A model generated the notes under the pieces. It was given only the letters and a program-made list of their open reading frames with translations. It was not told the DNA's origin and did not search any database. From contig CAVZZO010000001.1 of assembly GCA_963779755.1 (NCBI GenBank), forward strand, positions 192,001 to 256,000: a DNA stretch of 64,000 bases. Reading direction: 5' to 3'. This DNA is from an uncultured Gemmatimonadales bacterium. Its GTDB lineage: Bacteria; Gemmatimonadota; Gemmatimonadetes; Gemmatimonadales; GWC2-71-9. The position numbers were made by a program, and so were the translations under genes. How positions within the stretch are numbered: the stretch's first letter is position 1; each line of letters starts with the position of its first letter. Positions 3,879 through 63,118 of this stretch are shown in pieces.

Positions 3879-4529
3879 TCAGGCGTCCTCTCCTTCCACC
3901 GCGCGCGCGATCGCGTCCCGAATGGCCTCGGCCAGCGCCTGCTCGCCGGCGGGGCGGTGGAAGAGCGGATGGCGCTCGTCGATCAGCAGCTCGAGTCCGG
4001 CGTCCAGCGGCAGCCGCCGGCAGGTGCTGGGCCGGGCAGGGCTCCCGGTCGCTTCGGCCGGCCGGGCCCAGCCGGCCATCACCCGCCCCACCTTGCCGCG
4101 GGGCACCTCCTGTGGCGGCAGCAGCAGACGGTCCGGCGGGGGGAGGCCTGCGCCCAGCGCGGCAGCCACCCGGCGCTCGACCACATCGCCGCCCTGGTCC
4201 TGGAGGTCGCGGGTAATGGCGCCCAGCGTGGCTCCCTCCATTTGGCGGAGCTTGATCGCCAGCACCTGGAGCAGGTGGCGGTAGGTGTAAATCGCGGCGG
4301 TACCGCGGCCCTCGGGCGGGCTCACCAGCCCCTGGGCTACGTAGAACCGGATGGTTCGTTCGGTGGGCCGGGCACGCGCGGCGGCATTGAGAGGAAACAC
4401 CCCGGAGGCACCGAGGATAGCCCCCGCGAGCGCACTCAGATCGCGCAGGCTCCAGGGCGCCAGCGCCCGGTATTCGCGCAGCACCGTAATGGGATCGGGC
4501 GATGCCGGATTGGGGCGGGCGGCGGTCAT
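3879..4529 (-). CDS. MerR-like HTH transcriptional regulator
   Basis: TERTIRFYVAQGLVSPPEGRG..YTYRHL winged HTH. ATG overlaps the upstream stop. Confidence 0.8.
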   Translation of the reverse strand: MTAARPNPASPDPITVLREYRALAPWSLRDLSALAGAILGASGVFPLNAAARARPTERTIRFYVAQGLVSPPEGRGTAAIYTYRHLLQVLAIKLRQMEGATLGAITRDLQDQGGDVVERRVAAALGAGLPPPDRLLLPPQEVPRGKVGRVMAGWARPAEATGSPARPSTCRRLPLDAGLELLIDERHPLFHRPAGEQALAEAIRDAIARAVEGEDA

Positions 4530-4933
4530 GCCGACCCGTTGCTCTGCCGCGGCAGAGACTCGGTCTGCGCCGACAGTACCGTGGCGATCAGCGATTCCAG
4601 TTCCTTGAGGGCAAACGGTTTGGCCAGCATGGGCCGGCGGCGCAGCTCCTCCGGCCATTCATCGCGGCAGTGTTCCGGGTCGCCGCTCATGAATACCACC
4701 CGGCCCCGCAGCCGGGGCCAGCGCCGCACCAGGGCAAGGTACAAGGTATCGCCCGTCATCTGGGGCATGCGGACGTCCAGCAGCACCAGATCCACGTCCG
4801 TCTCCGACAGCAGCTCGTAGGCGGAATCGGCGCCCGAGGCCAGCAGCACTTCGTACCCGCACCACCGGAGCGCCCGGTCCAGGGCGTGCCGGATGCTGGG
4901 CTCGTCATCGATCACCAGCAGCCGCGTGCTCAC
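4526..4933 (-). CDS. Single-domain response regulator (CheY-like)
   Basis: LLVIDDE, LLDVRMP, FMSG and LAKPF motifs. Confidence 0.9.
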   Translation of the reverse strand: MSTRLLVIDDEPSIRHALDRALRWCGYEVLLASGADSAYELLSETDVDLVLLDVRMPQMTGDTLYLALVRRWPRLRGRVVFMSGDPEHCRDEWPEELRRRPMLAKPFALKELESLIATVLSAQTESLPRQSNGSA

Positions 4934-5721
4934 GATACCGCCTCCCGGGCCTGCTCGAAATAGCGCGACGTCACGATGGCCAGCGCATCCTCGGCCGACA
5001 GGGAGAGGCGCAACTCCCCGGCGGTCAGCCCGAAGACTTCCTTGAGATGCATCTGCAGGCTCCTCGCCTTGCTGTAACCCAGCTTCATCGCCACGTCCTC
5101 TACCGTATAGCCCGGATCCAGCAGCAGCCGGTGCGCGTACAACAGCCGCGCCAGCATCAGTACCACCTTGGGCGACGGCAACCCGCTGCGGGCAAACCAG
5201 CGCTCGCAGGTGCGCCGCTGCAGGCTGGCCCGGTCCGCCAGCGCCGACACGGTGGCGGCATCGGTGGGCGTGTGCAGCATTGCCTCCAGTGCCCAGCGCA
5301 GCTGCGGCGGTAGCCCCTTCAGCAGCCCGACGATGGCCTGAATCACCTTGCGGGAAGCGGTCTGCTCCAGCTCCTCCCGCAGTGCCACCCGCAGGGCCGG
5401 CGGGGAGTCGTCGAACCGGGTGAACACCGCCCGGCGGATCCCGATCCGCCCCAACTCCAGCAGCACCCCCGCCGTATCGGGCGACAGGGTGGTGTAGACC
5501 AGCAGCGGCAGCGAGGGGAAGAGAACCCGAAGCCGTTCGATCTCATGCGTACGGGGCTGCCCGCTGAGCAGCGGGTCGGCCACGACCATCTCGATCGGCT
5601 GGCGCCGGATGATCTCGATCACCTCGGCCCAGGCGGGCACCGTGACGAACGCATAGCGATCGGGCTCCGCAGAGCGCAACCGCTGGACACGATCGTCGGG
5701 AACCGCGGCCAGGAGCAGCAT
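4930..5721 (-). CDS. AraC-family regulator with N-terminal receiver-like domain
   Basis: C-terminal TVEDVAMKLGYS..LQMHLKEVFGLT AraC signature. N-terminal VVADP..LPLLVYT is receiver-like. Confidence 0.85.
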   Translation of the reverse strand: MLLLAAVPDDRVQRLRSAEPDRYAFVTVPAWAEVIEIIRRQPIEMVVADPLLSGQPRTHEIERLRVLFPSLPLLVYTTLSPDTAGVLLELGRIGIRRAVFTRFDDSPPALRVALREELEQTASRKVIQAIVGLLKGLPPQLRWALEAMLHTPTDAATVSALADRASLQRRTCERWFARSGLPSPKVVLMLARLLYAHRLLLDPGYTVEDVAMKLGYSKARSLQMHLKEVFGLTAGELRLSLSAEDALAIVTSRYFEQAREAVS

Positions 5722-50907: not shown

Positions 50908-52677
<1,770 letters not shown>

Positions 52678-52693
52678 TTACCTGCTCGGTCGT

Positions 52694-52803
52694 CGCCGCG
52701 CTCCCTCCGCCGGTGTGAGCCGGATCAGGTTCCAAGGGTACATTCTCAATCCAGCCTGCGGAGGCGGGAATCTCCCGACCCTCGGCGTGGATGCCCCTGG
52801 CGG
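52694..52803 (-). promoter_or_regulatory. TPP riboswitch
   Basis: Minus strand AGGGG..TGAGA..ACCCTT.GAACCTGATCCGG..CACACCGGCGGAGGGA, directly upstream of thiC. Confidence 0.93.
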
Positions 52804-52880
52804 CATCCGCGAATAGTAAAGATGGCCGCGAAGCGGGGTCAATAGTGATATTCCAGCGTCTCTTCGCGGATGCGCCTTTC

Positions 52881-53360: not shown

Positions 53361-54346
53361 GCCTGCTGCTGACGCCGCTGGCGCGGCAGGCAGGGATCGA
53401 CGTGCCCCTCATCTGCGGGGCGATGTACCCCTGCAGCAATCCCGAACTGGTGGCGGCCGTCTCCGAGGCCGGCGGGATCGGTATCGTCCAGCCCATCTCG
53501 CTCACCTACGTTCACGGCCACGAATTCCGCGCCGGACTGCAGTATATCCGCCGTCTCACCGCCCGGCCCGTCGGGATGAACGCGCTGATCGAGCAGTCCT
53601 CGCGCGCCTATCGCCGCCGGATGGAACGATGGATCGACCTGGCCCTGGAGGAGGGCATCCGCTTCTTTGTGACCTCGCTGGGGAACCCCCGCTGGGTGGT
53701 CGAGCGGGTGCGGCCCCTCGGCGGCATCGTCTACCACGACGTGACGGAACTGAAATGGGGGCGCAAGGGGGCCGATGCCGGCGTGGACGGGCTCATCGCG
53801 GTAAACCGGCGCGCCGGCGGACATGCCGGCGACCGTTCGCCGCAGGCGCTTTTCGAAGAGCTCCAGCCGCTGGGGCTCCCGCTGGTGTGCGCCGGAGGCA
53901 TCGGAACCGCCGCCGAGTTCGTCGCCGCCCTCCAGACCGGCTACGCCGGCGCCCAGCTCGGCACCCGGTTCATCGCCACACCGGAGTGCCGGGCCAGCGA
54001 CGCCTACAAGACGGCGATCGTTCAGGCGCGCGAAGCTGATATCGTCCTCACCGAGCGGATCACCGGCGTACCGGTCTCGGTCATCCGGACTCCCTACATC
54101 GAGCGTATGGGCCTGCGCGCGGGCCCTCTGGCGCGCCGGCTGCTGCGGGGGCGCCGGACCAAGCACCTCATGCGGACCGTTTACGCCCTGCGCTCGCTCT
54201 GGCAACTCAAACGGGCATCGCTGGATGAGAGCGGGACGCGTGACTACTGGCAGGCGGGCCGCAGCGTCGAAGGCATCACCGCCATCGAGCCGGCTGCCGA
54301 TATTGTACGGCGCTATGCCGGGGCGGCCCAGGCGGCCCCGGGTTGA
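53357..54346 (+). CDS. Nitronate monooxygenase/FabK-like flavoenzyme
   Basis: [29 protein letters not shown] and [11 protein letters not shown] motifs. Confidence 0.88.
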
Positions 54347-54759
54347 TGCCGCGGCTCACCCGCTGGTTCCTGCGCGCCGGGCTGCTGTATCTGGTGGCCG
54401 CACTGGCGCTGGGTGTGGCGCAGAGGTGGCCCGGCCGCGGGCCGGCGATTCTGGCCGCGACCTGGCCGGTCTACATCCATGCGCTGGTGGTCGGCTGGCT
54501 CACCCAGCTGGTCTTCGGCGTCGCCTGGTGGATGTTCCCCCGGGCGCCCGGTCCCCGGCCCCGGGGCAGCGCCCGGGCAGGCTGGATCGTCTTCGTCGCA
54601 CTGAACGCAGGGCTGCTCCTGCGCCTGGGTGCGGAACCGGCCGCGGCGGTGCACTCCAGCACCGCAATCCGCTGGGCCCTGGCCGCCGCCGCCGTCCTTC
54701 AGCTGCTGGCCGGCTGGCTGTTTGTCGTCAGCATCTGGCCGCGGGTCAGGGGCCGCTGA
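54346..54759 (+). CDS. Four-TM membrane protein with conserved His (heme-copper-oxidase-fragment/NnrS-like)
   Basis: HALVVGWLTQLVFGVAWWMFPR motif. Confidence 0.7.
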   Translation: MPRLTRWFLRAGLLYLVAALALGVAQRWPGRGPAILAATWPVYIHALVVGWLTQLVFGVAWWMFPRAPGPRPRGSARAGWIVFVALNAGLLLRLGAEPAAAVHSSTAIRWALAAAAVLQLLAGWLFVVSIWPRVRGR

Positions 54760-54760
54760 G

Positions 54761-55186
54761 ATGCCCCAGTGGTCTATCCGCCTGGTACGCACCGGGCTGC
54801 TCTACCTGGCCGCGGGATTTCTCTTCGGCGCCCTACTCCTGGTGCAGAAAGCAGGGTGGAACATCACGGGCGGCCTGGCCCTGCTGCCGCTGCATACCGA
54901 GTGCGTCCTCATCGGCTGGTTCGTACAAACCACCATGGGGGTGGCCTACTGGATCCTCCCCCGCTATCCCACCCATCCGGAACGGGGCCCCGACTGGCAC
55001 ATGGCCGGAGCCTTCGTGCTCATCAATGTGGGCATCCTGACGACGGCAGCCGGCCTGGCCTGGTCACCTGCCACCGCCGTGCCGCTCGCCGGACGACTGG
55101 CCCAGAGCGGCGCGATACTGCTCTTCGGACTCCATGCCTGGCCCAGGGTACGGCCATTTCTTGCGCCCGGGCCATCACGTCCCTGA
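54761..55186 (+). CDS. Paralogous four-TM membrane protein
   Basis: HTECVLIGWFVQTTMGVAYWILPR, with the same WPRV ending as its neighbour. Confidence 0.7.
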   Translation: MPQWSIRLVRTGLLYLAAGFLFGALLLVQKAGWNITGGLALLPLHTECVLIGWFVQTTMGVAYWILPRYPTHPERGPDWHMAGAFVLINVGILTTAAGLAWSPATAVPLAGRLAQSGAILLFGLHAWPRVRPFLAPGPSRP

Positions 55187-55285
55187 ACCGTCCCACTTCT
55201 TGGCAGCCTCGGCGCAATGACCAACCGGCTGCACCTCCGTATTCTTCCCCTTTTTCGCATCCCACCTATAACGGAGTGTGCGGGC

Positions 55286-55331
55286 TGTAACGTTACATGC
55301 CATTCAGGGTAGAGTGTGACCAGGATCACAC
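55286..55331. promoter_or_regulatory. Palindromic operators upstream of the cytochrome operon
   Basis: TGTAACGTTACA (55286-55297) and a perfect CRP-type TGTGA-N6-TCACA (55315-55330) in a lower-GC spacer. Confidence 0.6.
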
Positions 55332-55585
55332 GCGCCAACTCGTTTGTGCACATGGCATTCCGTTATACGATAGATGATTTGTAAGGGCGTAGTTCTTGCG
55401 AATCCAGGTGACCGGGTCCAGCGGTCCCGAGTTGACCAATGGGAAAGGCAGCCCGGAACAAGTCCCGTTGCCCTGCCAGAAAACTGCCGGAAACACCAGC
55501 CAGACTCTCCGATTTGTACATAGTTGTGCATGCAATTGCGCGTCTCCTTGCGTGCCAAAGTCTATTCATTAAAGGAGCAGGTTGG

Positions 55586-56575
55586 ATGGCACGATCGAGT
55601 GCTGCGCTGCGGGCGACGGCCCCGGCCCAAGCCCCAATCACAACCCCACCGGCCACCCCAGGCCGGACCCCGCCGCGCCCCAGGCCGGCCCGCGCTGCCC
55701 CTTCATCGCGCCAGACGCCGAGTCAGCTGCCGTTGATCGTGGTGTTGTCGTCTCTGGCGGTGCTCAACCTGCTGGGTGTGCCGTACTACCTGCTGCCGAT
55801 GAGCGACCGGGTTCGCAGCCCGTTGCATGCCTGGTTCAAACCTTCCGGCTATATCGGCCAGCCGGCAGGTATCCTGGCCTTCACCATCTTCGGGTTCCTC
55901 TGGCTCTACCCGCTGCGCAAGAAGTTCCGCTGGCTGGCCTTCACCGGTTCGGTCGGCCGCTGGCTCGACGTGCACGTCCTCTCGGCCCTGGCGCTGCCGA
56001 TGCTGTTGGCGATTCATGCCAGCTGGCGGTTCGACGGGCTGATCGGCCTGGGCTATGCCGCCATTCTCGTGGTCTGCCTGAGCGGGATCATCGGCCGCTA
56101 TGTGTACGTGCGCATTCCGCGCAGCCGCTCCGGCCTCGAGCTGTCCCTGGAGGAAATCGCGGGCCAGCGCAAGGCGCTGCTGCAGACCATCGCCGAGGCC
56201 ATCGGGCAGGATCCGGACACCGTCGAGCGCATTCTCCAGACCGACCCTGCCTCGTGTGAGGGGCTGGGTGTGGCACACACCGTCGGACGCATGTTCACCG
56301 ACGACATCCGCCGCTGGCGGGCTGCGGCCGAACTGCGGCGGCGCTGGCGGAATTCCGCCAACGGTGCCCGGCTGGACCGGCAGACGCTGCGCCAGGTCCT
56401 GGGGCTGGCTAATCGGGAAATGAAGCTCACCCAGCAGGTCCGGATGCTCTCGGCCACTCACCGGGTTTTCCGCTACTGGCATGTGGCCCACCGCCCGGTG
56501 GCGCTCACGGCGCTGGTTGCGGTGATCGTCCATGTCGCGGTGGTCGTGGCGCTGGGCGCCACCTGGTTCTGGTAG
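55586..56575 (+). CDS. Inner-membrane protein, putative di-heme cytochrome b
   Basis: Several TM helices. Two His pairs 14 residues apart (WLDVH..AIH and WHVAH..IVH). Confidence 0.7.
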   Translation: MARSSAALRATAPAQAPITTPPATPGRTPPRPRPARAAPSSRQTPSQLPLIVVLSSLAVLNLLGVPYYLLPMSDRVRSPLHAWFKPSGYIGQPAGILAFTIFGFLWLYPLRKKFRWLAFTGSVGRWLDVHVLSALALPMLLAIHASWRFDGLIGLGYAAILVVCLSGIIGRYVYVRIPRSRSGLELSLEEIAGQRKALLQTIAEAIGQDPDTVERILQTDPASCEGLGVAHTVGRMFTDDIRRWRAAAELRRRWRNSANGARLDRQTLRQVLGLANREMKLTQQVRMLSATHRVFRYWHVAHRPVALTALVAVIVHVAVVVALGATWFW

Positions 56576-56581
56576 CCAGCC

Positions 56582-58033
56582 ATGGAAGCGCTCTACACCA
56601 CCCTGGGCTTCTTCGCTCTGACCGCCGTGTCCATCTGGCTGCACCTGCGGCGGAGCGGGGGGAGCGCCAAGCCGGCCGCGGCCCGGCCGGCCGCCCCGGG
56701 ACGCCCCTGCCCCCGCTGCAGGGCCGGGGTGCCTTCGGGGGCAACCTTCTGCCCCGCCTGCGGCGTGCCGCAGCAGATCTACGAGGTCGTCGCGGCCCCC
56801 ACCGTCACCCGCACCGAATCGGACGGGGAGGAGCGGGTGCATGCCGTTGTGCGGGCGGACATGTGCGTCGGCTGCGGCACCTGTGTCGCGGCCTGCCCGG
56901 AACCCGGTGCCATCGCCCTGCAGGGCAAGCTGGCGGTGGTGGAGCAGGCCGTCTGTGCCGGCCATGGCCAATGCGCCTCGGCCTGCCCCGTGGGCGCCAT
57001 CCTGCTGACCACCGGAGCGGCGGTACACCGGGTCGAAGTGCCTGAGGTCGGCGCCGATTTCCAGACCAACATTCCCGGCATCTACATCGTGGGGGAGCTG
57101 GGCGGCCGCGGCCTGATCAAGAACGCGATCAACGAAGGGAAGATTGCCATCGAGCATATCGCGCTGGAGTTGCCGCCGGGTGAGACGCGGCTGGACGGCG
57201 AAGCCGAAGCGTTTGATGTGGTGATCGTCGGCTCGGGCCCCGCGGGGCTGAGTGCCGGCCTCGAAGCACACCGCCGCGGGTTGCGCTATGTGGTGGTGGA
57301 ACAGGGCTCCCTCTCCGACACCGTGCGTAAGTACCCCCGTCACAAGATTCTCTTCGCCGAGCCGCTGTCGATCCCGCTGTACGGCGATCTCTGGATAGCG
57401 GACGCCTCCAAGGAGACACTGCTCCAGGTCTGGGAAACGATCGTCGCCAACACCGGGCTCGAGGTACGAACCAACCAGCGCATTCAGCAGGTGGCACGCG
57501 TGGACGGCCTGTTCGAGGTCGCCTCCGAAGCCGAGCGATTCCGGACCCGCCGGGTCGTTCTGGCGATGGGGCGCCGGGGCACGCCCCGGCGTCTGGGCGT
57601 TCCCGGAGAAGAGCTGGCGAAGGTGGTCTATGACATCGCCGAGATGGAGGATTTTCGGGGCCGGAAGGTCCTGGTGGTGGGCGGCGGCGACAGCGCCATC
57701 GAGTCGGTGCTCGGCCTGGCCAACCAGGAGGGTACCTCCGCCACCCTGAGCTACCGGGGCGAAGACTTTACCCGCGTGAAGGAACGGAACCGGGCCAAGC
57801 TGGATGCCGCCGTCGAGGCCGGCAGGGTGGGGGTGCAGCTGCGCAGCACGGTGCGGGAGATCCGGCCGGACCGCGTCGTGCTCGATGTCGCCGGCGAGAG
57901 CGCCATCCTTCTCAACGACGATGTCATTGTCCGCATCGGTGGCGACGCGCCCTACGCGTTCCTCGAGCGCCTGGGCATTCGCATCGTGCAGAAAGATGTG
58001 CCGCTCCCCTCCGAGGCCGCGCGCGCCAGTTGA
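56582..58033 (+). CDS. Membrane-anchored Zn-ribbon/ferredoxin/NAD(P)H flavoprotein (TrxB/YpdA-like fold)
   Basis: N-terminal TM, CPRC..CPAC, CVGCGTCVAACP, CAGHGQCASACP, GSGPAG (FAD) and GGGDSA..SYR (NADPH). Confidence 0.88.
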   Translation: MEALYTTLGFFALTAVSIWLHLRRSGGSAKPAAARPAAPGRPCPRCRAGVPSGATFCPACGVPQQIYEVVAAPTVTRTESDGEERVHAVVRADMCVGCGTCVAACPEPGAIALQGKLAVVEQAVCAGHGQCASACPVGAILLTTGAAVHRVEVPEVGADFQTNIPGIYIVGELGGRGLIKNAINEGKIAIEHIALELPPGETRLDGEAEAFDVVIVGSGPAGLSAGLEAHRRGLRYVVVEQGSLSDTVRKYPRHKILFAEPLSIPLYGDLWIADASKETLLQVWETIVANTGLEVRTNQRIQQVARVDGLFEVASEAERFRTRRVVLAMGRRGTPRRLGVPGEELAKVVYDIAEMEDFRGRKVLVVGGGDSAIESVLGLANQEGTSATLSYRGEDFTRVKERNRAKLDAAVEAGRVGVQLRSTVREIRPDRVVLDVAGESAILLNDDVIVRIGGDAPYAFLERLGIRIVQKDVPLPSEAARAS

Positions 58034-60045
58034 TGCGGGGCGCGGCGGGGGGACTCGCGCTGCTGGCGGCGCTCCTGCTGGCGGCTACTGCACCGCTGGC
58101 GGGACAGATCTCGCCGGGCAAACTGGCCCGGCCGCACGCAGCCCTGGAGGGCCCGCTCAACTGCACCAGGTGCCACGGCGGCCGCGGGACGGAAATGAAG
58201 ACCCGCTGTCTGGCCTGTCACAAGGAAATCGCCTGGCTGATGGAGCGGGGACGGGGCTTCCATGCCACCGATCCCGCGGTGCCCTGCGAGAGCTGTCATC
58301 CGGATCACGCAGGCGAGGATTTCGCCCTGATCAAGTGGCCGGACGGCTCCCGCGACCGGTTTGACCACCGGAGAGCGGGCTGGGCGCTCGAGGGGGCGCA
58401 TGCCGAGGTGAAGTGCGAGGACTGCCACCAGGCCAGGAACCGCAGCGGCCCAGCGGCCCGGCTTTCACCCGGCAAGAGCGGAGCCGGCTGGGTGGGCCTG
58501 GAGCAGGACTGTCTGAGCTGCCACGAAGACGCGCATAACGGGTCGCTGGGCAAGGATTGCACGGCGTGCCACGACATCGGGAAATGGACCTTCGCGGCGC
58601 GGTTCGATCACGCCAGGTCCGATTACCCACTGACCGGGAAGCACCAGGATGTGAAGTGCAACGCGTGCCACCTGCCGGAGGGGCGGCCGGTGCGCCGGAA
58701 CGCCAGGGGAGAGCCGGTGCCCATCTACACGCCGCTCGCGCATGCCCAATGCTCCGACTGCCACCGCGACCCGCACCAGGGCCGTTTCGGGGCCAAGTGC
58801 GCGGACTGCCATCAGACGAGCGGCTTCAAGCTCATCCGGAAGAGCGGCTTCGACCACGACCGCACCCGCTATCCCCTGCGCGGGAAACATGCATCGGTGG
58901 CCTGCGAGAAATGCCACGATCCGAAATCGCCGAGCGGGTTCAAGGTGGCCTTTGCCACCTGCGGCGCCTGTCACCACGACGCCCACGCGGGCCAGGCCAC
59001 GCTGGCGGACAAGCCGGCCGACTGCGCCGACTGTCATACGGTCGACGGGTTCGACGTGCCGGCCTTCACGGTGGCGCGGCACGCCCGCACCCGCTATCCG
59101 CTCCAGGGCAGGCACGCGCGCGCGACATGCACCGCCTGCCACCGGGAACGGCCGGCGGGGGTTCCCGCGGCCAAACTGGGCTCGGCGGGGATTCTGATGC
59201 GGCCCGCCTTTACCCGCTGCCGCGATTGTCATGAAGACGATCACGACGGCCAGCTGGCAGAGCGGCCCGGCGCCGGCGCCTGCGAAGGCTGCCACACGCC
59301 GGAGGGCTGGTCACCGAGCACCTTTACCGCGGCGCGGCACGATTCCCTGCGTCTGACGCTGGTCGGACGGCATCGCGCCATCGCCTGCGCCGCCTGCCAC
59401 GGCCCCGACCGGCCGCGCCTGCCCGCCCTCCCGGCACAGGGGCTGGGGAAGGCGGGCGTGGCGTTGACCATGCTGTCCGCGACCTGCACCAGCTGCCATC
59501 AGGACCCCCATCTGGGACGATTCGAGCCGGCGGGCAAGCAGCCGGTAGCCGGCGGGTGCGAAGCGTGCCACGACTATCAGGGCTTCCGTCCCTCGGCGGT
59601 GGACGTCGAGCGCCACGGCAAGCTGGGTTTCGCGCTGGACGGCGCCCACCGGGCCATTCCCTGCGTGGCGTGCCACGACCAGATGCACTCGCGCACGGCC
59701 GGCAGCACCCTGACGGGGGCGCCCCATCTGCAGGCGGTCTCGCTGGCGGTAAAGGGCTCGAAATGCGCCGACTGCCATACCGATCCGCACGGCGGGCAGT
59801 TTGCCTCCCGCCCCGGCGGGGGCGCCTGCGAGAGCTGCCATACGACCGACGCCTTCCGGCCCGCCGGCCGGTTCGATCACGATCGCGATACGAAGTTCAC
59901 GTTGCGCGGAGCGCACGAGCATGTCGCCTGCGAGGCGTGTCACCACCCCGCGGCGCCGGCCCGGGGGGCCCGGGGGCCCGCGCCGCTCCGATATCGTCCT
60001 CTATCCAGTGCCTGCGAGAGCTGTCACGCGGGAGGGAAGCCATGA
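58030..60045 (+). CDS. Multiheme cytochrome c, 23 CxxCH
   Basis: Signal peptide. 23 CxxCH counted, in three-heme FDH..YPL.G.H modules. Confidence 0.95.
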   Translation: MMRGAAGGLALLAALLLAATAPLAGQISPGKLARPHAALEGPLNCTRCHGGRGTEMKTRCLACHKEIAWLMERGRGFHATDPAVPCESCHPDHAGEDFALIKWPDGSRDRFDHRRAGWALEGAHAEVKCEDCHQARNRSGPAARLSPGKSGAGWVGLEQDCLSCHEDAHNGSLGKDCTACHDIGKWTFAARFDHARSDYPLTGKHQDVKCNACHLPEGRPVRRNARGEPVPIYTPLAHAQCSDCHRDPHQGRFGAKCADCHQTSGFKLIRKSGFDHDRTRYPLRGKHASVACEKCHDPKSPSGFKVAFATCGACHHDAHAGQATLADKPADCADCHTVDGFDVPAFTVARHARTRYPLQGRHARATCTACHRERPAGVPAAKLGSAGILMRPAFTRCRDCHEDDHDGQLAERPGAGACEGCHTPEGWSPSTFTAARHDSLRLTLVGRHRAIACAACHGPDRPRLPALPAQGLGKAGVALTMLSATCTSCHQDPHLGRFEPAGKQPVAGGCEACHDYQGFRPSAVDVERHGKLGFALDGAHRAIPCVACHDQMHSRTAGSTLTGAPHLQAVSLAVKGSKCADCHTDPHGGQFASRPGGGACESCHTTDAFRPAGRFDHDRDTKFTLRGAHEHVACEACHHPAAPARGARGPAPLRYRPLSSACESCHAGGKP

Positions 60046-61532
60046 TGCGAATGCCGCGATGGATGCTGCCGGCCTGCGCCCTGCTGTGCCTGCTGGGCGT
60101 GCCGGCCCTCCAGGGGCAGGAGGTGACCCAGTCCCCGCACGGGCAGCTGAAAGAGGCCTGCGCCGACTGCCATTCCTCCTCCGGGTGGACGCCGGCCCAC
60201 ATCAGCCGGGCGTTCGATCACGGCAAGTCCGGCTTCGCCCTGACCGGGGCGCACGCCCAGACCGCCTGCCGTTCCTGCCATGCCTCGCTCACGTTCACGG
60301 GCGCGCCGAAGGACTGCGTCAACTGCCACAAGGACGTGCACGGCGGCGAGCTGGGGGTGGACTGCGCCCGCTGCCATACGCCGCGGTCGTTCGTCGACCG
60401 GGCCCGCATGGTGCAGATGCACCAGGCGACGCGCTTCCCGCTGACGGGGACGCATGCCGTGGCCGATTGCGAGGCCTGCCATGAGGCCAGGGGCCAGGGC
60501 GGCCTCACCTGGGTGAACCGCCCCACGCAGTGTCAGGACTGCCACATTTCCAGCTACCTGGCGACCACCAATCCCGATCACCAGGCCAGCGGCTTCCCGC
60601 GCACCTGCGACCAGTGCCATGCCTCCAGTGTCTGGAACCGGGCACGCTTCAATCATGATGCCTCGGGCTTCCCGTTGACCGGGGCACACCGCAGCACCGC
60701 GTGCGACCAGTGCCACGGCGACGGCGTCTACACAGGCAAGCCGACCGCCTGCGTGGCCTGCCACCAGCAGGACTACAACGGAACCACGAACCCGAACCAT
60801 CAGCAGTCCGGCTTCCCGACCAGCTGCACCGACTGCCACACCACCACCAGCTGGCAGGGCGCCACCTTTGATCACAATACGACGCAGTTCCCGCTCACCG
60901 GATCGCATAAGGCAGTGCCCTGCGACCAGTGCCACGGGGACGGCGTGTACAAGGGCAAGCCGACCGCCTGCGTGGCCTGCCACCAGCAGGACTACAACGG
61001 AACCACGAACCCGAACCACCAGCAGTCCGGTTTCCCGACCAGCTGCACCGACTGCCACACCACCACCAGCTGGCAGGGCGCCACCTTTGATCACAATTCG
61101 ACGCAGTTCCCGCTCACCGGATCGCATAAGGCAGTGCCCTGCGACCAGTGCCACGGCGACGGCGTCTACGCCGGCAAGCCGACTGCCTGCGTCGCCTGCC
61201 ATCAGACGGACTACAACGGCACGACCAACCCGCCGCATCAGGCCTCGGGGTTCCCGACGACCTGCGCCGACTGCCATACCACCAGCGGGTGGACGGGCGC
61301 CACGTTCAACCACGACGGGCCCTACTTCCCCATCTACTCGGGGACCCACCTCGGCCGCTGGATCTCGTGTGCGGACTGCCACACCAATCCGAGCGCGTAT
61401 TCGCAGTTCAGCTGCATTACCTGCCACGACCACAGCCAGTCGAATACCGACGGGCATCACACCGGCGTATCGGGCTACCAGTACAACAGCCAGGCATGCT
61501 ACAGCTGCCATCCCACGGGGAGGGCCGGATGA
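60042..61532 (+). CDS. Multiheme cytochrome c, 19 CxxCH
   Basis: Signal peptide. 19 CxxCH counted. ATGA overlap with the upstream gene. Confidence 0.95.
   Translation: MMRMPRWMLPACALLCLLGVPALQGQEVTQSPHGQLKEACADCHSSSGWTPAHISRAFDHGKSGFALTGAHAQTACRSCHASLTFTGAPKDCVNCHKDVHGGELGVDCARCHTPRSFVDRARMVQMHQATRFPLTGTHAVADCEACHEARGQGGLTWVNRPTQCQDCHISSYLATTNPDHQASGFPRTCDQCHASSVWNRARFNHDASGFPLTGAHRSTACDQCHGDGVYTGKPTACVACHQQDYNGTTNPNHQQSGFPTSCTDCHTTTSWQGATFDHNTTQFPLTGSHKAVPCDQCHGDGVYKGKPTACVACHQQDYNGTTNPNHQQSGFPTSCTDCHTTTSWQGATFDHNSTQFPLTGSHKAVPCDQCHGDGVYAGKPTACVACHQTDYNGTTNPPHQASGFPTTCADCHTTSGWTGATFNHDGPYFPIYSGTHLGRWISCADCHTNPSAYSQFSCITCHDHSQSNTDGHHTGVSGYQYNSQACYSCHPTGRAG
60648..61314 (+). repeat. Intragenic 219-bp tandem repeat (~3 copies, 73 aa, 3 hemes each)
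   Basis: CCGACYGCCTGCGT anchor at 60741, 60960 and 61179. Confidence 0.9.
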
Positions 61533-63118
61533 TCCGCATACCACTCGCTGTCCCGGTCCTCCTGGCGCTCATGCTGGGCCCGCTCCGCAGCGCGGCGGCG
61601 CAGGACTCTACCCGCACAGACTCTACCCGCTCGGCGCGGATAACCTACCTTACCGCCGACGCCGTGTATCTCGATGCCGGTCGGGAGGAGGGCCTGGAAG
61701 AAGGCGCCAGAGTGGACCTGCTGCATGGCGGCCAGGTGACTGGGGAGCTGCGGGTACGCTATCTCTCGTCCCACCGCGCCTCCTGCGAAGTGGTCCGGGC
61801 CGACCCCACCCCGGCGGTGGGCGACTCGGTCCGCTTTATCCCTGCGGAGAAGCAGCCGGCCGCCGCCGCCGTGAAACCGGCGGGTGAGAACCGCGAGTCC
61901 TTTCGCCGGCGTCCGCGGAGCGTGCGCGGCCGGGTGGGACTGCGCTATCTCGTCATCCGCCAGAAGGACCTGGGCAGCGCGGGCGTGAGCCAGCCCGCGC
62001 TGGACGTGCGCATGGACGGCGCGGGGCTGGGGGGCTCGCCCGTCGGGGTGACCGTCGACGTGCGCGCCCGGCGGACCACGAGCACGCAAGTGGACGGCAG
62101 CCAGTCGAGCAACGATCGCTACCGGGTCTACCAGCTGGCTCTCAACTGGAATACCCCGGGTTCGCCCCTGCGGATGACGCTGGGCCGCCAGTTTTCGGCT
62201 CCGCTCGCTACGGTCAGCTTCTTCGACGGCCTGACGGCGGAGTACAACCGGCCCTCCTGGAGCTTCGGCCTCTTCGGCGGCACCCAGCCGGATGCGATCG
62301 ATTTCGGCTACTCCAACGATATCCGTGAGCTGGGCGGATACCTCCAGCTTCATAACCGCCCGGCCGGATCCCGGCTCTGGACGCTGACCCTCGGCGGGGT
62401 GGGGTCGTACGGGGCCGTGGCGACCAACCGCGAGTTCGCCTTCCTCTCCGCCAGCTACAGCGACCGGCATTTCTCGTTCTACGGGACGCAGGAGGTCGAC
62501 TACAACCGGCCCTGGAAAGTGGCGCAGGGCGATCCCACCGTCAGCCCGACCAGCACCTTCCTGACGGCGTCGTATCGCGTCGGGTCCGGTTTCTCTTTCC
62601 ATGGCGGCTTCGACAACCGGCGCAACGTGCGGCTCTATCGTGACCTGATCAATCCGGAAACCCGGTTCGACGATTCCTACCGGCAGGGGATCTATGGGGG
62701 CCTGTCCCTGGCCTTCGGCGGCCGCTACCGCCTGGGGCTCGATGCCCGCTCCAGCCGCGGCGGCACCGCCGGGCCGGCGAATGCCTATACCGTCTCACTC
62801 GGGGCTGATCGCCTGACCTCACTGAACCTGGGTCTGCACACCCGGACCACCCGCTATACCACACCTGCGCTGACCGGCTGGCTGCATTCGGCCGACGTGG
62901 CGCTCATCGGCGGCCCCGCCCGCCTCGAGCTCAACGGCGGGCTGCGGCTGGAACACAACCCGCTCGACGATCCGCCCGACAGCCGGCTCACCTGGCTGGG
63001 GGCAGACCTGGACCTGAGCCTGAGCCGGGCCTGGTATTTCCTGCTGTCGGTGCGGCGGGAACGCGGCGGGATCGACGCGAACGACCAGTTGTACGGGGGG
63101 ATCAGCTGGCGCTTCTGA
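61529..63118 (+). CDS. Outer-membrane beta-barrel (porin) of the cytochrome cluster
   Basis: Signal peptide, many amphipathic strands and a C-terminal YGGISWRF beta-signal. ATGA overlap. Confidence 0.8.
   Translation: MIRIPLAVPVLLALMLGPLRSAAAQDSTRTDSTRSARITYLTADAVYLDAGREEGLEEGARVDLLHGGQVTGELRVRYLSSHRASCEVVRADPTPAVGDSVRFIPAEKQPAAAAVKPAGENRESFRRRPRSVRGRVGLRYLVIRQKDLGSAGVSQPALDVRMDGAGLGGSPVGVTVDVRARRTTSTQVDGSQSSNDRYRVYQLALNWNTPGSPLRMTLGRQFSAPLATVSFFDGLTAEYNRPSWSFGLFGGTQPDAIDFGYSNDIRELGGYLQLHNRPAGSRLWTLTLGGVGSYGAVATNREFAFLSASYSDRHFSFYGTQEVDYNRPWKVAQGDPTVSPTSTFLTASYRVGSGFSFHGGFDNRRNVRLYRDLINPETRFDDSYRQGIYGGLSLAFGGRYRLGLDARSSRGGTAGPANAYTVSLGADRLTSLNLGLHTRTTRYTTPALTGWLHSADVALIGGPARLELNGGLRLEHNPLDDPPDSRLTWLGADLDLSLSRAWYFLLSVRRERGGIDANDQLYGGISWRF

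Follow-up and report, generated by a model that had tools for sequence, protein, structure and literature searches.

A candidate five-gene trans-envelope electron conduit of the PCC3 kind in Gemmatimonadales, with a conserved flavin and iron-sulfur partner

Can a single gene cluster lead electrons all the way from the cytoplasm of a bacterium to an acceptor outside the cell? This question is raised by a locus in a stretch of 64,000 nucleotides (hereinafter the window; positions 192,001 to 256,000 of contig CAVZZO010000001.1, assembly GCA_963779755.1) from an uncultured Gemmatimonadales bacterium, whose genome of 4.23 Mb in four contigs is 97% complete and holds the locus on its 2.37-Mb contig. 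Five co-directional genes, denoted g1 to g5, occupy positions 55586-63118 of the window on the + strand, in a stretch rich in guanine and cytosine (GC fraction 0.63-0.73), and the named sources of the nearest relatives of their products are Gemmatimonadales or Gemmatimonadota. The original prediction described tightly packed genes for a membrane protein with pairs of histidines, an anchored ferredoxin-flavoprotein, two exported cytochromes with 23 and 19 haems, and a beta-barrel protein ending in Phe, and took them for an electron conduit across the envelope. Both the packing and the gene content have been confirmed by the listing of open reading frames (ORFs), inspection of start codons and translation:

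55586-56575, + strand: g1, 329 aa, with an AAGGAG-like site upstream; inner-membrane protein with 5 predicted transmembrane (TM) helices, a putative di-haem b electron gate of the PCC3/PCC4 inner-membrane protein ("IMP") type
56582-58033, + strand: g2, 483 aa; membrane-anchored ferredoxin-flavoprotein by Pfam, the catalytic part predicted to face the cytoplasm
58033-60045, + strand: g3, 670 aa; exported 23-haem cytochrome c (signal peptide, 23 CXXCH), the conserved "first" cytochrome, which is presumed to bridge the periplasm
60042-61532, + strand: g4, 496 aa; exported 19-haem cytochrome c (19 CXXCH), the variable "second" cytochrome, presumed to be inserted in the barrel or exposed at the surface
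61529-63118, + strand: g5, 529 aa; outer-membrane protein with a signal peptide, a beta domain (residues 34-103), a linker, a barrel (133-528) and a C-terminal Phe (...SWRF)

A gap of 6 bp separates g1 from g2, g2 and g3 have one base in common (TGATG), and the g3/g4 and g4/g5 junctions are ATGA overlaps. Chance is excluded as the origin of this arrangement, since the whole gene set is conserved in related loci.

We propose that the five genes together specify a single PCC3-like electron conduit through the envelope, with an input on the cytoplasmic side that is dedicated to it, a reading that we hold to be probable, if only somewhat. PCC3 is a predicted four-gene cluster of Proteobacteria, whose electrons are exchanged with quinones (He 2017, PMC5566968; Hoover 2023, PMC9900912). 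Apart from an inner-membrane protein, it contains a porin, a conserved periplasmic cytochrome with 21, 24 or 27 haems, and a variable repeat-rich cytochrome with 10-35 and up to 85 haems (PMC5566968; PMC9900912). The inner-membrane protein, found in PCC3 and in a further cluster, PCC4, has about 300 aa, five helices, an SGxxG motif on TM4 and WX3HX13H motifs on TM3 and TM5, and is likened by He 2017 to the ferric-reductase domain that holds two b haems (PMC5566968). Set against PCC3 as described, the likeness claimed for the locus is borne out feature by feature, by the barrel, the two large cytochromes and the g1 motifs. Comparative evidence from sequences lends good support to the conduit reading and to the membership of the flavoprotein in the system, and the five-gene version would thus appear as a widely conserved variant of the predicted PCC3 conduit, a flavin and iron-sulfur (Fe-S) partner having been published only for PCC4/Ptd and for clusters without a porin, both considered below.

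Evidence for this reading comes from gene linkage across phyla. A search of 1.84 billion proteins with a g1 profile retrieved 2,742 representatives (E <= 0.001), and at least 575 loci were confirmed in species-representative genomes, starting from a subset of the distant members of the g1 family. The set for comparison comprised 121 loci, namely 41 from close relatives of g1 (one genome per species) and the best 80 of the at least 575; they were searched with g1, g2 and g5 profiles, an ORF with six or more CXXCH being counted as a cytochrome. The record titles of the best 80 name Gemmatimonadota, Eisenbacteria, Acidobacteriota, Fidelibacterota/Neomarinimicrobiota, KSB1, Calditrichota, Ignavibacteriota, Krumholzibacteriia and many Bacteroidota. 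The flavoprotein g2 is present in 114 of the 121 loci, and all seven loci where it was missed have less than 2.4 kb of sequence downstream of g1. Where at least 8 kb is available there (72 loci), g2 is found in all 72, and 71 of these also contain a cytochrome and a g5 homologue, so that the full set of five genes, taken by the original prediction to belong together, is indeed found together in related loci.

The position of g2 relative to g1 differs widely: among the 114 loci it is adjacent downstream in 63, divergent upstream in 34, located after the porin gene in 10, upstream and co-directional in 6, and placed otherwise in one. The divergent arrangement is characteristic of the Gemmatimonadota-type loci (34 of 41), the FCB set has g2 adjacent downstream in 58 loci, after the porin gene in 10 and upstream co-directional in 6, and the order with g2 between g1 and g3 is seen in the window, in locus L003 and in four Eisenbacteria loci. 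Despite these changes in gene order, the link between g1 and g2 persists. The genome of the window carries one g1 copy.

Some Gemmatimonadales loci (L018, L039, L040 and L042) are rearranged in a different manner: g1 is followed by a cytochrome with 20-23 CXXCH and, after a gap of about 2 kb, by two more with 20 and 13 CXXCH that precede the barrel gene. A gap of 0.4-1 kb between the second cytochrome and the barrel gene is observed in many other Gemmatimonadales loci.

Moreover, the two proteins at the proposed input end occur as one polypeptide in another phylum. A protein of 743 aa (P0314), assigned by NCBI to a Planctomycetes metagenome-assembled genome (MAG), consists of a TM anchor, a ferredoxin domain, a flavoprotein part and a g1-like domain, the latter carrying SGxxG and the two WX3HX13H motifs. 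Its alignment with g2 extends over 388 residues at 39% identity (E 3e-81), and that with g1 over 128 residues at 34% (E 2e-16). With its membrane part as the query, 435 proteins of 408-1301 residues were found; of the 120 listed from these, 112 have 700 aa or more, and all 112 have at least two HX13H motifs in the C-terminal part. The sources of the fusions seen are Planctomycetota or Planctomycetes, and the typical length is about 740 aa. Existence of a single polypeptide in another phylum, together with the conserved linkage, provides the strongest evidence in this study that g2 and g1 may exchange electrons directly.

Three apparent fusions from Gemmatimonadota metagenome contigs (P0149, P0133 and P0138) were rejected as frameshift or gene-calling artefacts: they contain out-of-frame filler between the g1 and g2 parts, and the g2 start is visible in them. 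Another protein, P0313, appears to combine g1 with a cytochrome. A metagenomic protein of 705 aa (P0315) joins an Fe-S domain of the Fer4_11 type to a g1-like membrane part, which recalls a joint annotation mentioned for a PCC4 cluster in He 2017 (PMC5566968).

These data bear on the claim that the operon adds an NAD(P)H/Fe-S module of its own. The flavoprotein does belong to the module, as seen from its presence in all 72 loci with sufficient flank and from the Planctomycetota fusion. The notion of an addition has to be dropped, however, as the family, which extends across many phyla, has the flavoprotein as a conserved component of ancestral origin, and a flavin/Fe-S partner is already in print.

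How would electrons cross the inner membrane? The candidate gate is g1, whose relevant features are the following:

55952..56023, + strand: TM3 of g1 with the first His pair, H130 and H144 (translation, AlphaFold2 model, alignment)
56468..56554, + strand: TM5 of g1 with the second His pair, H302 and H316 (translation, AlphaFold2 model, alignment)

The motifs read W-x3-H130-x13-H144, SGIIG and W-x3-H302-x13-H316. In the alignment of 47 rows from several phyla that was used to assess conservation in both g1 and g2, H130, H144, H299 and H302 are kept in all 47 rows and H316 in 46, the remaining row having a gap; both WX3HX13H motifs are present in 86 of the 99 full-length representatives of the g1 family. 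The AlphaFold2 (AF2) model, built on an alignment of 34 rows, has a mean predicted local distance difference test score (pLDDT) of 70.8 and five long membrane helices, with the His pairs on helices 3 and 5 and SGIIG on helix 4; a helical insert of about 100 residues (about residues 188-290) separates helices 4 and 5, and by the positive-inside rule both this insert and the N-terminus are likely to be cytoplasmic. A scan of 52 diverse members of the g1 family against Pfam at a loose threshold yielded sub-threshold matches only, to DUF4405 in 42 members (best E 5.7e-6), Ferric_reduct in 30 (1.5e-4) and Ni_hydr_CYTB in 24 (1.1e-4). Foldseek with the g1 model returned nothing from PDB at E <= 0.001, the g1-family profile had no match among PDB sequences below E 0.5, and the protein atlas gave unnamed clusters only. 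One more histidine, H81 (55826-55828), in the predicted periplasmic loop between TM1 and TM2 (...SPLH.W.KPSG...), is outside the published motif set and is kept in 41 of the 47 rows.

A protein of this kind might instead work with quinones. If g1 were a quinol-oxidising or quinone-reducing cytochrome b, the conduit would be fed from quinol and g2 would be an accessory, such as a second input, a reductase for repair or priming, or a redox sensor. He 2017 proposes such a role for the inner-membrane protein (PMC5566968), and it agrees with the weak matches of 24 of the 52 family members to Ni_hydr_CYTB, a family of quinone-reactive cytochromes b, and with the retention of H81 in 41 of the 47 rows. 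Yet for a simple quinol dehydrogenase one would not expect near-obligate linkage of g1 to g2 or fusion with a flavoprotein; a quinone site cannot be pointed to, and a separate cytochrome b and multihaem cluster in the same genome fits that job. We therefore consider a quinol-fed conduit unlikely, and retain a dedicated cytoplasmic input through g2 as the preferred reading.

The domains of g2 are arranged as follows:

56597..56647, + strand: N-terminal TM anchor, followed by HLRR (from sequence; the anchor is kept across phyla)
56708..56761, + strand: zinc-ribbon insert, CPRC...CPAC (Pfam DZR/Zn_Ribbon_1, below the cut-off)
56843..57001, + strand: ferredoxin domain, CxxCxxCxxxCP and then CxxHxxCxxxCP
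57215..58006, + strand: two-dinucleotide-fold domain binding flavin adenine dinucleotide (FAD) and NAD(P), Pyr_redox_3, residues 214-475

Pfam shows a hydrophobic helix, a zinc ribbon, a ferredoxin of the 2x[4Fe-4S] type (Fer4_21/Fer4_10) and Pyr_redox_3 (E 1.3e-41) in this order. Comparison of N-termini demonstrates that the zinc ribbon is restricted to the co-directional subtype, that is to the window, L003 and the Eisenbacteria loci, and that an N-terminal TM helix with a Lys/Arg-rich stretch occurs in every g2 homologue with a callable N-terminus among those displayed. As HLRR follows the anchor, the C-terminal part of g2 is predicted by the positive-inside rule to lie inside the cell. The second Fe-S motif has His in place of the second Cys, and every one of the 47 rows has C125, H128, C131 and C135; at the second Cys position of the first motif, 33 rows have Cys, 9 have Ser and 5 have Thr. 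Both GxGxxG motifs of g2 are invariant in the 47 rows, as are Y391, R392 and K400 after the second of them, residues that we take to resemble the Arg motif by which thioredoxin reductases bind the phosphate of NADPH. The nearest solved relatives of the flavin domain are YpdA/Bdr (7a7b, E 1.1e-30) and ferredoxin-NADP reductases of the thioredoxin reductase (TrxR) type (about 1e-15). The window g2 has no Cys in its flavin domain, hence disulfide chemistry is unlikely. Prediction of a complex of g1 (residues 40-329) and g2 with two haems and two 4Fe-4S clusters scored 0.07, compared to a mark of 0.32, a result that carries no weight for or against their interaction.

The next segment of the proposed route consists of g3 and g4, with 23 and 19 CXXCH motifs, respectively, and 42 in total; neither contains CX3-4CH motifs. 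The numbers of histidines (52 in g3 and 41 in g4) suffice for bis-His ligation of every haem. Both proteins are densely packed with haems, at 29 residues per haem in g3 and 26 in g4, and both are built of three-haem units resembling cytochrome c7 (Pfam Cytochrome_C7 repeats). In g4, three repeats of 73 aa, each with three haems, have a recurring spacing of 32-16-25, and its Pfam matches include Mtrc-MtrF_II-IV_dom. Across the related loci, the first cytochrome has 17, 20 or 23 CXXCH, changing in steps of three haems, and the second one from 7 to 70, which matches the pattern reported for the periplasmic and extracellular cytochromes of PCC3 (PMC5566968; PMC9900912). Most of the 27 FCB loci displayed share recurring mature N-termini, ...QISPG... 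in the first cytochrome and ...SPHG... in the second; the g3-type pattern in full is ...QISPG.L...H..LEG..C..CH.

The largest second cytochromes, with 70 CXXCH in about 1,700 residues, are encoded in loci L071 (13785-18890) and L081 (13916-19084), the sources being a Prolixibacteraceae MAG and a Melioribacteraceae MAG.

Is g5 wide enough to take up a cytochrome, as the conduit would demand? Its AF2 model, built on an alignment of 31 rows, has a pLDDT of 81.6, with 22 strands counted in the barrel and a disordered linker. A VIA-align search against 48,161 chains ranks the 22-strand barrels of TonB-dependent transporters first, the best match being 5t3r_D (Z 16.8, root-mean-square deviation (rmsd) 4.3, 366 aligned residues); FyuA (Z 15.7), Cir (15.5), BtuB (15.4) and the 24-strand usher PapC (14.7) also match, and the comparison with MtrB (6r2q_B) gives Z 12.9 and rmsd 5.3 with 343 aligned. 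Foldseek yields generic large barrels only, at a template-modelling score of about 0.4, and g5 has no Pfam or NCBIfam match, including no match to the TonB-dependent-receptor Pfam families or to the MtrB family. A barrel of 22 strands, of the size of TonB receptors by both the model and the structural comparison, should not be too narrow for a cytochrome, and the original prediction stands in this respect.

Taken together, the five proteins suggest the following route. Anchored by one helix and with its bulk in the cytoplasm, g2 would oxidise NAD(P)H at its FAD and pass the electrons on through two Fe-S clusters; g1 would lead them through the inner membrane by way of two b haems with bis-His ligation between TM3 and TM5, like the NOX and ferric-reductase domains; g3, with 23 haems, would carry them through the periplasm; and g4, with 19 haems, threaded in the g5 barrel or docked on it, would deliver them to an external acceptor, for example humics or Fe(III)/Mn(IV) minerals. 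Such a route would bypass quinones, and the export would be aided by the membrane potential, with no energy conserved at this step; it would therefore be a redox vent or a reductive tool, and not a coupling site or a system with a main respiratory role.

The direction of the flow deserves separate consideration. Known proteins with ferric-reductase domains move electrons outward, inward transfer opposes the membrane potential, and reduction of NAD(P)+ by Fe(II) is strongly uphill. The taxa in the record titles of the carriers are mostly heterotrophs, and for all these reasons we favour the outward direction. The same arguments stand against an uptake route, by which extracellular Fe(II), minerals, cathodes or partner cells would supply electrons that pass through g5, g4 and g3 to g1, g2 and a cytoplasmic acceptor. 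Multihaem wires are reversible in principle, which would allow for uptake. Moreover, PCC3 was first found in Fe(II) oxidisers and is drawn with inward flow in He 2017 (PMC5566968, Figure 6). On balance, we regard uptake as rather unlikely and return to outward transfer.

In its most specific form, the proposal is that the module is a two-membrane "split NOX", a quinone-independent NAD(P)H:extracellular-acceptor oxidoreductase in which g2 and g1 feed cytoplasmic electrons straight into a wire of 40 to 90 haems ending outside the cell; this is tentative, and we regard it as conceivable without calling it probable. In the known routes of extracellular electron transfer (Mtr, Geobacter Pcc and PCC3 as modelled in print), the starting point is the quinone pool. 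A conserved route starting at NAD(P)H would represent a different bioenergetic design, suited to redox balancing or to reductive mobilisation of iron, and the published quinone-based model of PCC3 would need revision. Many soil, sediment and marine heterotrophs that are not counted as electroactive, from Gemmatimonadota, Bacteroidota, Ignavibacteriota, Marinimicrobia and KSB1 among others, could then pass reducing power on to minerals, humics or partner cells with no use of their respiratory chain, and the spread of the module would widen the range of candidate electroactive bacteria in soils and sediments. The g1-g2 pair and its single-chain counterpart from Planctomycetota would form a compact system of two proteins or one.

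Several observations weigh against the conduit as proposed, and the first of them concern its input end. The window g1 has no Pfam or NCBIfam match, the Pfam gathering score not being reached, and a wide VIA-align search with its model gave generic helical matches only (ABC-exporter helices, Z about 8-10); since neither the family models nor the fold, at a pLDDT of 70.8, identify a relative, it is the motifs that suggest binding of haem b. For g2, the score against the YpdA model (NCBIfam TIGR04018) is 169.1 bits, the cut-off being 339.9, and use of NAD(P)H, with a preference for NADPH, is proposed by analogy. An outward route fed by NAD(P)H would waste energy compared to complex I with a quinol dehydrogenase, and a second multihaem cluster of the same genome, which includes a canonical cytochrome b, could serve quinol-linked transfer. 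Distribution of the family is patchy, as g1 homologues occur in 45 of the 201 sampled Gemmatimonadota genomes and in 26 of the 98 genera. A look-up of public sequencing runs listed none of RNA; one run of soil DNA contained 0.11 of the words sampled.

Further points of this sort concern the outer end. Both g3 and g4 have ordinary signal peptides and lack a lipobox, and the location of g4 at the cell surface or in the barrel is presumed by analogy with PCC3, as nothing in its features shows crossing of the outer membrane. Barrels of TonB-dependent transporters of this size hold a plug domain of about 150 residues, and the small N-terminal domain of g5 could, judging by the model, be a plug. In an Ignavibacteriales MAG (locus L066, g1 at about 4387-5259), g1 and g2 are adjacent with no cytochrome or barrel gene within 10 kb downstream, and there the pair may work with other partners. 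Table S6 of He 2017 (PMC5566968) contains clusters that lack a porin and combine a His-pair membrane protein with a small cytochrome and an "other redox protein" (412-805 aa), hence the g1-g2 pair is not tied to outer-membrane conduits alone.

Such features would suit a system with no extracellular wire at all, in which the cytochromes would store electrons in the periplasm or serve to reduce a substrate located there or in the outer membrane, and g5 would act as a channel for a substrate or as an anchor and not as a cytochrome sheath: g3 and g4 lack lipoprotein and secretion signals, the fold of g5 is nearest to the TonB-dependent transporter barrels and its N-terminal domain could be a plug, and porin-less relatives exist. 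Against this, the barrel gene is kept beside the cytochromes in 71 of the 72 loci with at least 8 kb downstream of g1, the second cytochrome reaches 70 haems, which is hard to explain for a periplasmic protein, and g5 matches none of the TonB-dependent-receptor Pfam families. A purely periplasmic system thus seems quite improbable to us, and the trans-envelope conduit remains the preferred interpretation.

As for other multihaem cytochromes of this genome, 14 stop-to-stop ORFs with three or more CXXCH have been found in total. One cluster (L125, G000:C3:769232-781198) contains ORFs with 8, 9, 21, 11 and 16 CXXCH together with a canonical cytochrome b (PF00033, 4.9e-48), a Pyr_redox_2 protein and a protein of 742 aa that matches no Pfam family, and adjoins genes of a V/A-type ATPase. 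Another one (L124, G000:C1:711511-723722) has ORFs with 8, 9 and 16 CXXCH on one strand and, on the opposite strand, ORFs with 4 and 5 CXXCH beside a molybdopterin oxidoreductase.

The immediate surroundings of the operon include one feature that may belong to it:

55187..55585, + strand: upstream intergenic region, the presumed promoter region, with a GC fraction of about 0.63 compared to 0.66-0.73 around

No conserved long ORF is present in this region, and no site matching the sigma-70 consensus was found in it. Directly upstream, two tandem genes for small membrane proteins of 138 and 143 aa (54343-54759 and 54755-55186, both on the + strand) have weak, sub-threshold matches to the N-terminal part of haem-copper oxidase subunit I (PF00115, E 1.6e-3 and 9.9e-5); they do not stand beside the module at other loci. 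More generally, the flanking genes of the window (DUF4442, nitronate monooxygenase, the two small COX1-like membrane proteins and an ABC-2 permease) do not accompany the module elsewhere and are therefore excluded from it. Farther upstream, a thiamine pyrophosphate (TPP) riboswitch at 52684-52808 on the - strand (Rfam RF00059, 57.6 bits, gathering score 54.3) precedes a long ORF at 50908-52611 on the same strand, which would be a ThiC gene, judging by its translation.

Literature searches found no description of the five-gene Gemmatimonadota/FCB version, subscription journals being mostly outside their coverage, and so the operon is best placed by comparison with the described systems. The closest of them is PCC3, with which the operon shares a barrel gene beside the cytochromes (g5 overlaps the stop of g4), two large cytochromes densely packed with haems, of which one is conserved and the other variable and rich in repeats, and a g1-type protein whose size, five helices, SGxxG and His motifs match the description. 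The two differ in the fifth conserved gene, g2, PCC3 being described without a dedicated cytoplasmic redox enzyme; in the first cytochrome, with 17, 20 or 23 haems here and 21, 24 or 27 in PCC3; and in taxonomy, Gemmatimonadota and the FCB phyla here and Proteobacteria there, the comparison being one with the published description.

PCC4 (PMC5566968) is the same as the ptdABCDEFG operon of a 2024 preprint (bioRxiv 10.1101/2023.11.21.568154), and is known from Proteobacteria, Nitrospirales and Planctomycetes (PMC5566968; bioRxiv 10.1101/2023.11.21.568154). In these sources, its porin and multihaem cytochromes are accompanied by a membrane protein that resembles ferric reductases and has the same His motifs, by an FAD/NAD(P) oxidoreductase and by a 2x[4Fe-4S] protein; PCC4 therefore provides a printed precedent for a flavin/Fe-S input beside a porin-cytochrome cluster. 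Its cytochromes, however, have 5, 4 and 10 haems, with no extracellular giant in that description, compared to 23 and 19 here; moreover, the Ptd flavoprotein and Fe-S protein are encoded by separate genes and belong to other families (a cNMP-binding Fe-S protein; Fer4_11), whereas here one anchored protein combines both. He 2017 observes no significant sequence similarity between the membrane proteins of PCC3 and PCC4 (PMC5566968). The Geobacter-type Pcc of Ignavibacterium, with a 14-haem periplasmic cytochrome (Shi 2014), is a different cluster.

With MtrCAB (PDB 6R2Q) the operon shares the working principle, a haem chain sheathed by a barrel with a second cytochrome outside, which is here predicted from the genes. 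It has no decahaem MtrA or MtrC, and the DmsE-family model TIGR03508 scores 27.7 bits, far below the cut-off of 192.2; g4 has no lipoprotein signal, g5 has no match to the MtrB family, and the barrel of g5 has 22 strands compared to 26 in MtrB. The electron input of Mtr is the quinol oxidase CymA, in contrast to g1 and g2 here.

At the cytoplasmic end, g2 resembles the TrxR-type ferredoxin-NADP+ reductases (5ygq, 3ab1), which transfer electrons between NADPH and an Fe-S ferredoxin, the very reaction proposed to proceed within g2. It differs from these and from YpdA/Bdr in having its own ferredoxin domain and a membrane anchor, and from YpdA/Bdr (7a7b) also in scoring below the model cut-off and in the lack of Cys in the flavin domain.

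As to the membrane step, members of the g1 family score below the cut-off of Ferric_reduct (PF01794), and g1 has the two His pairs, spaced by 13 residues, on two TM helices. In NOX, FRE, bacterial NOX-like proteins and MsrQ, two b haems are likewise held between His pairs of TM3 and TM5, fed by FAD/NAD(P)H from the cytoplasm and conducting outward (in part after PMC5566968). The differences from NOX are several: the dehydrogenase is not of the FNR type, being here a two-dinucleotide-fold flavoprotein of the TrxR/YpdA type with two Fe-S clusters; it is a separate anchored subunit, and in the fusions it forms the N-terminal part; g1 contains five helices with a cytoplasmic insert of about 100 aa; and the acceptor would be a cytochrome c wire. 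The single-chain layout of NOX, with the dehydrogenase and the membrane part in one polypeptide, is nevertheless reproduced by the Planctomycetota fusions.

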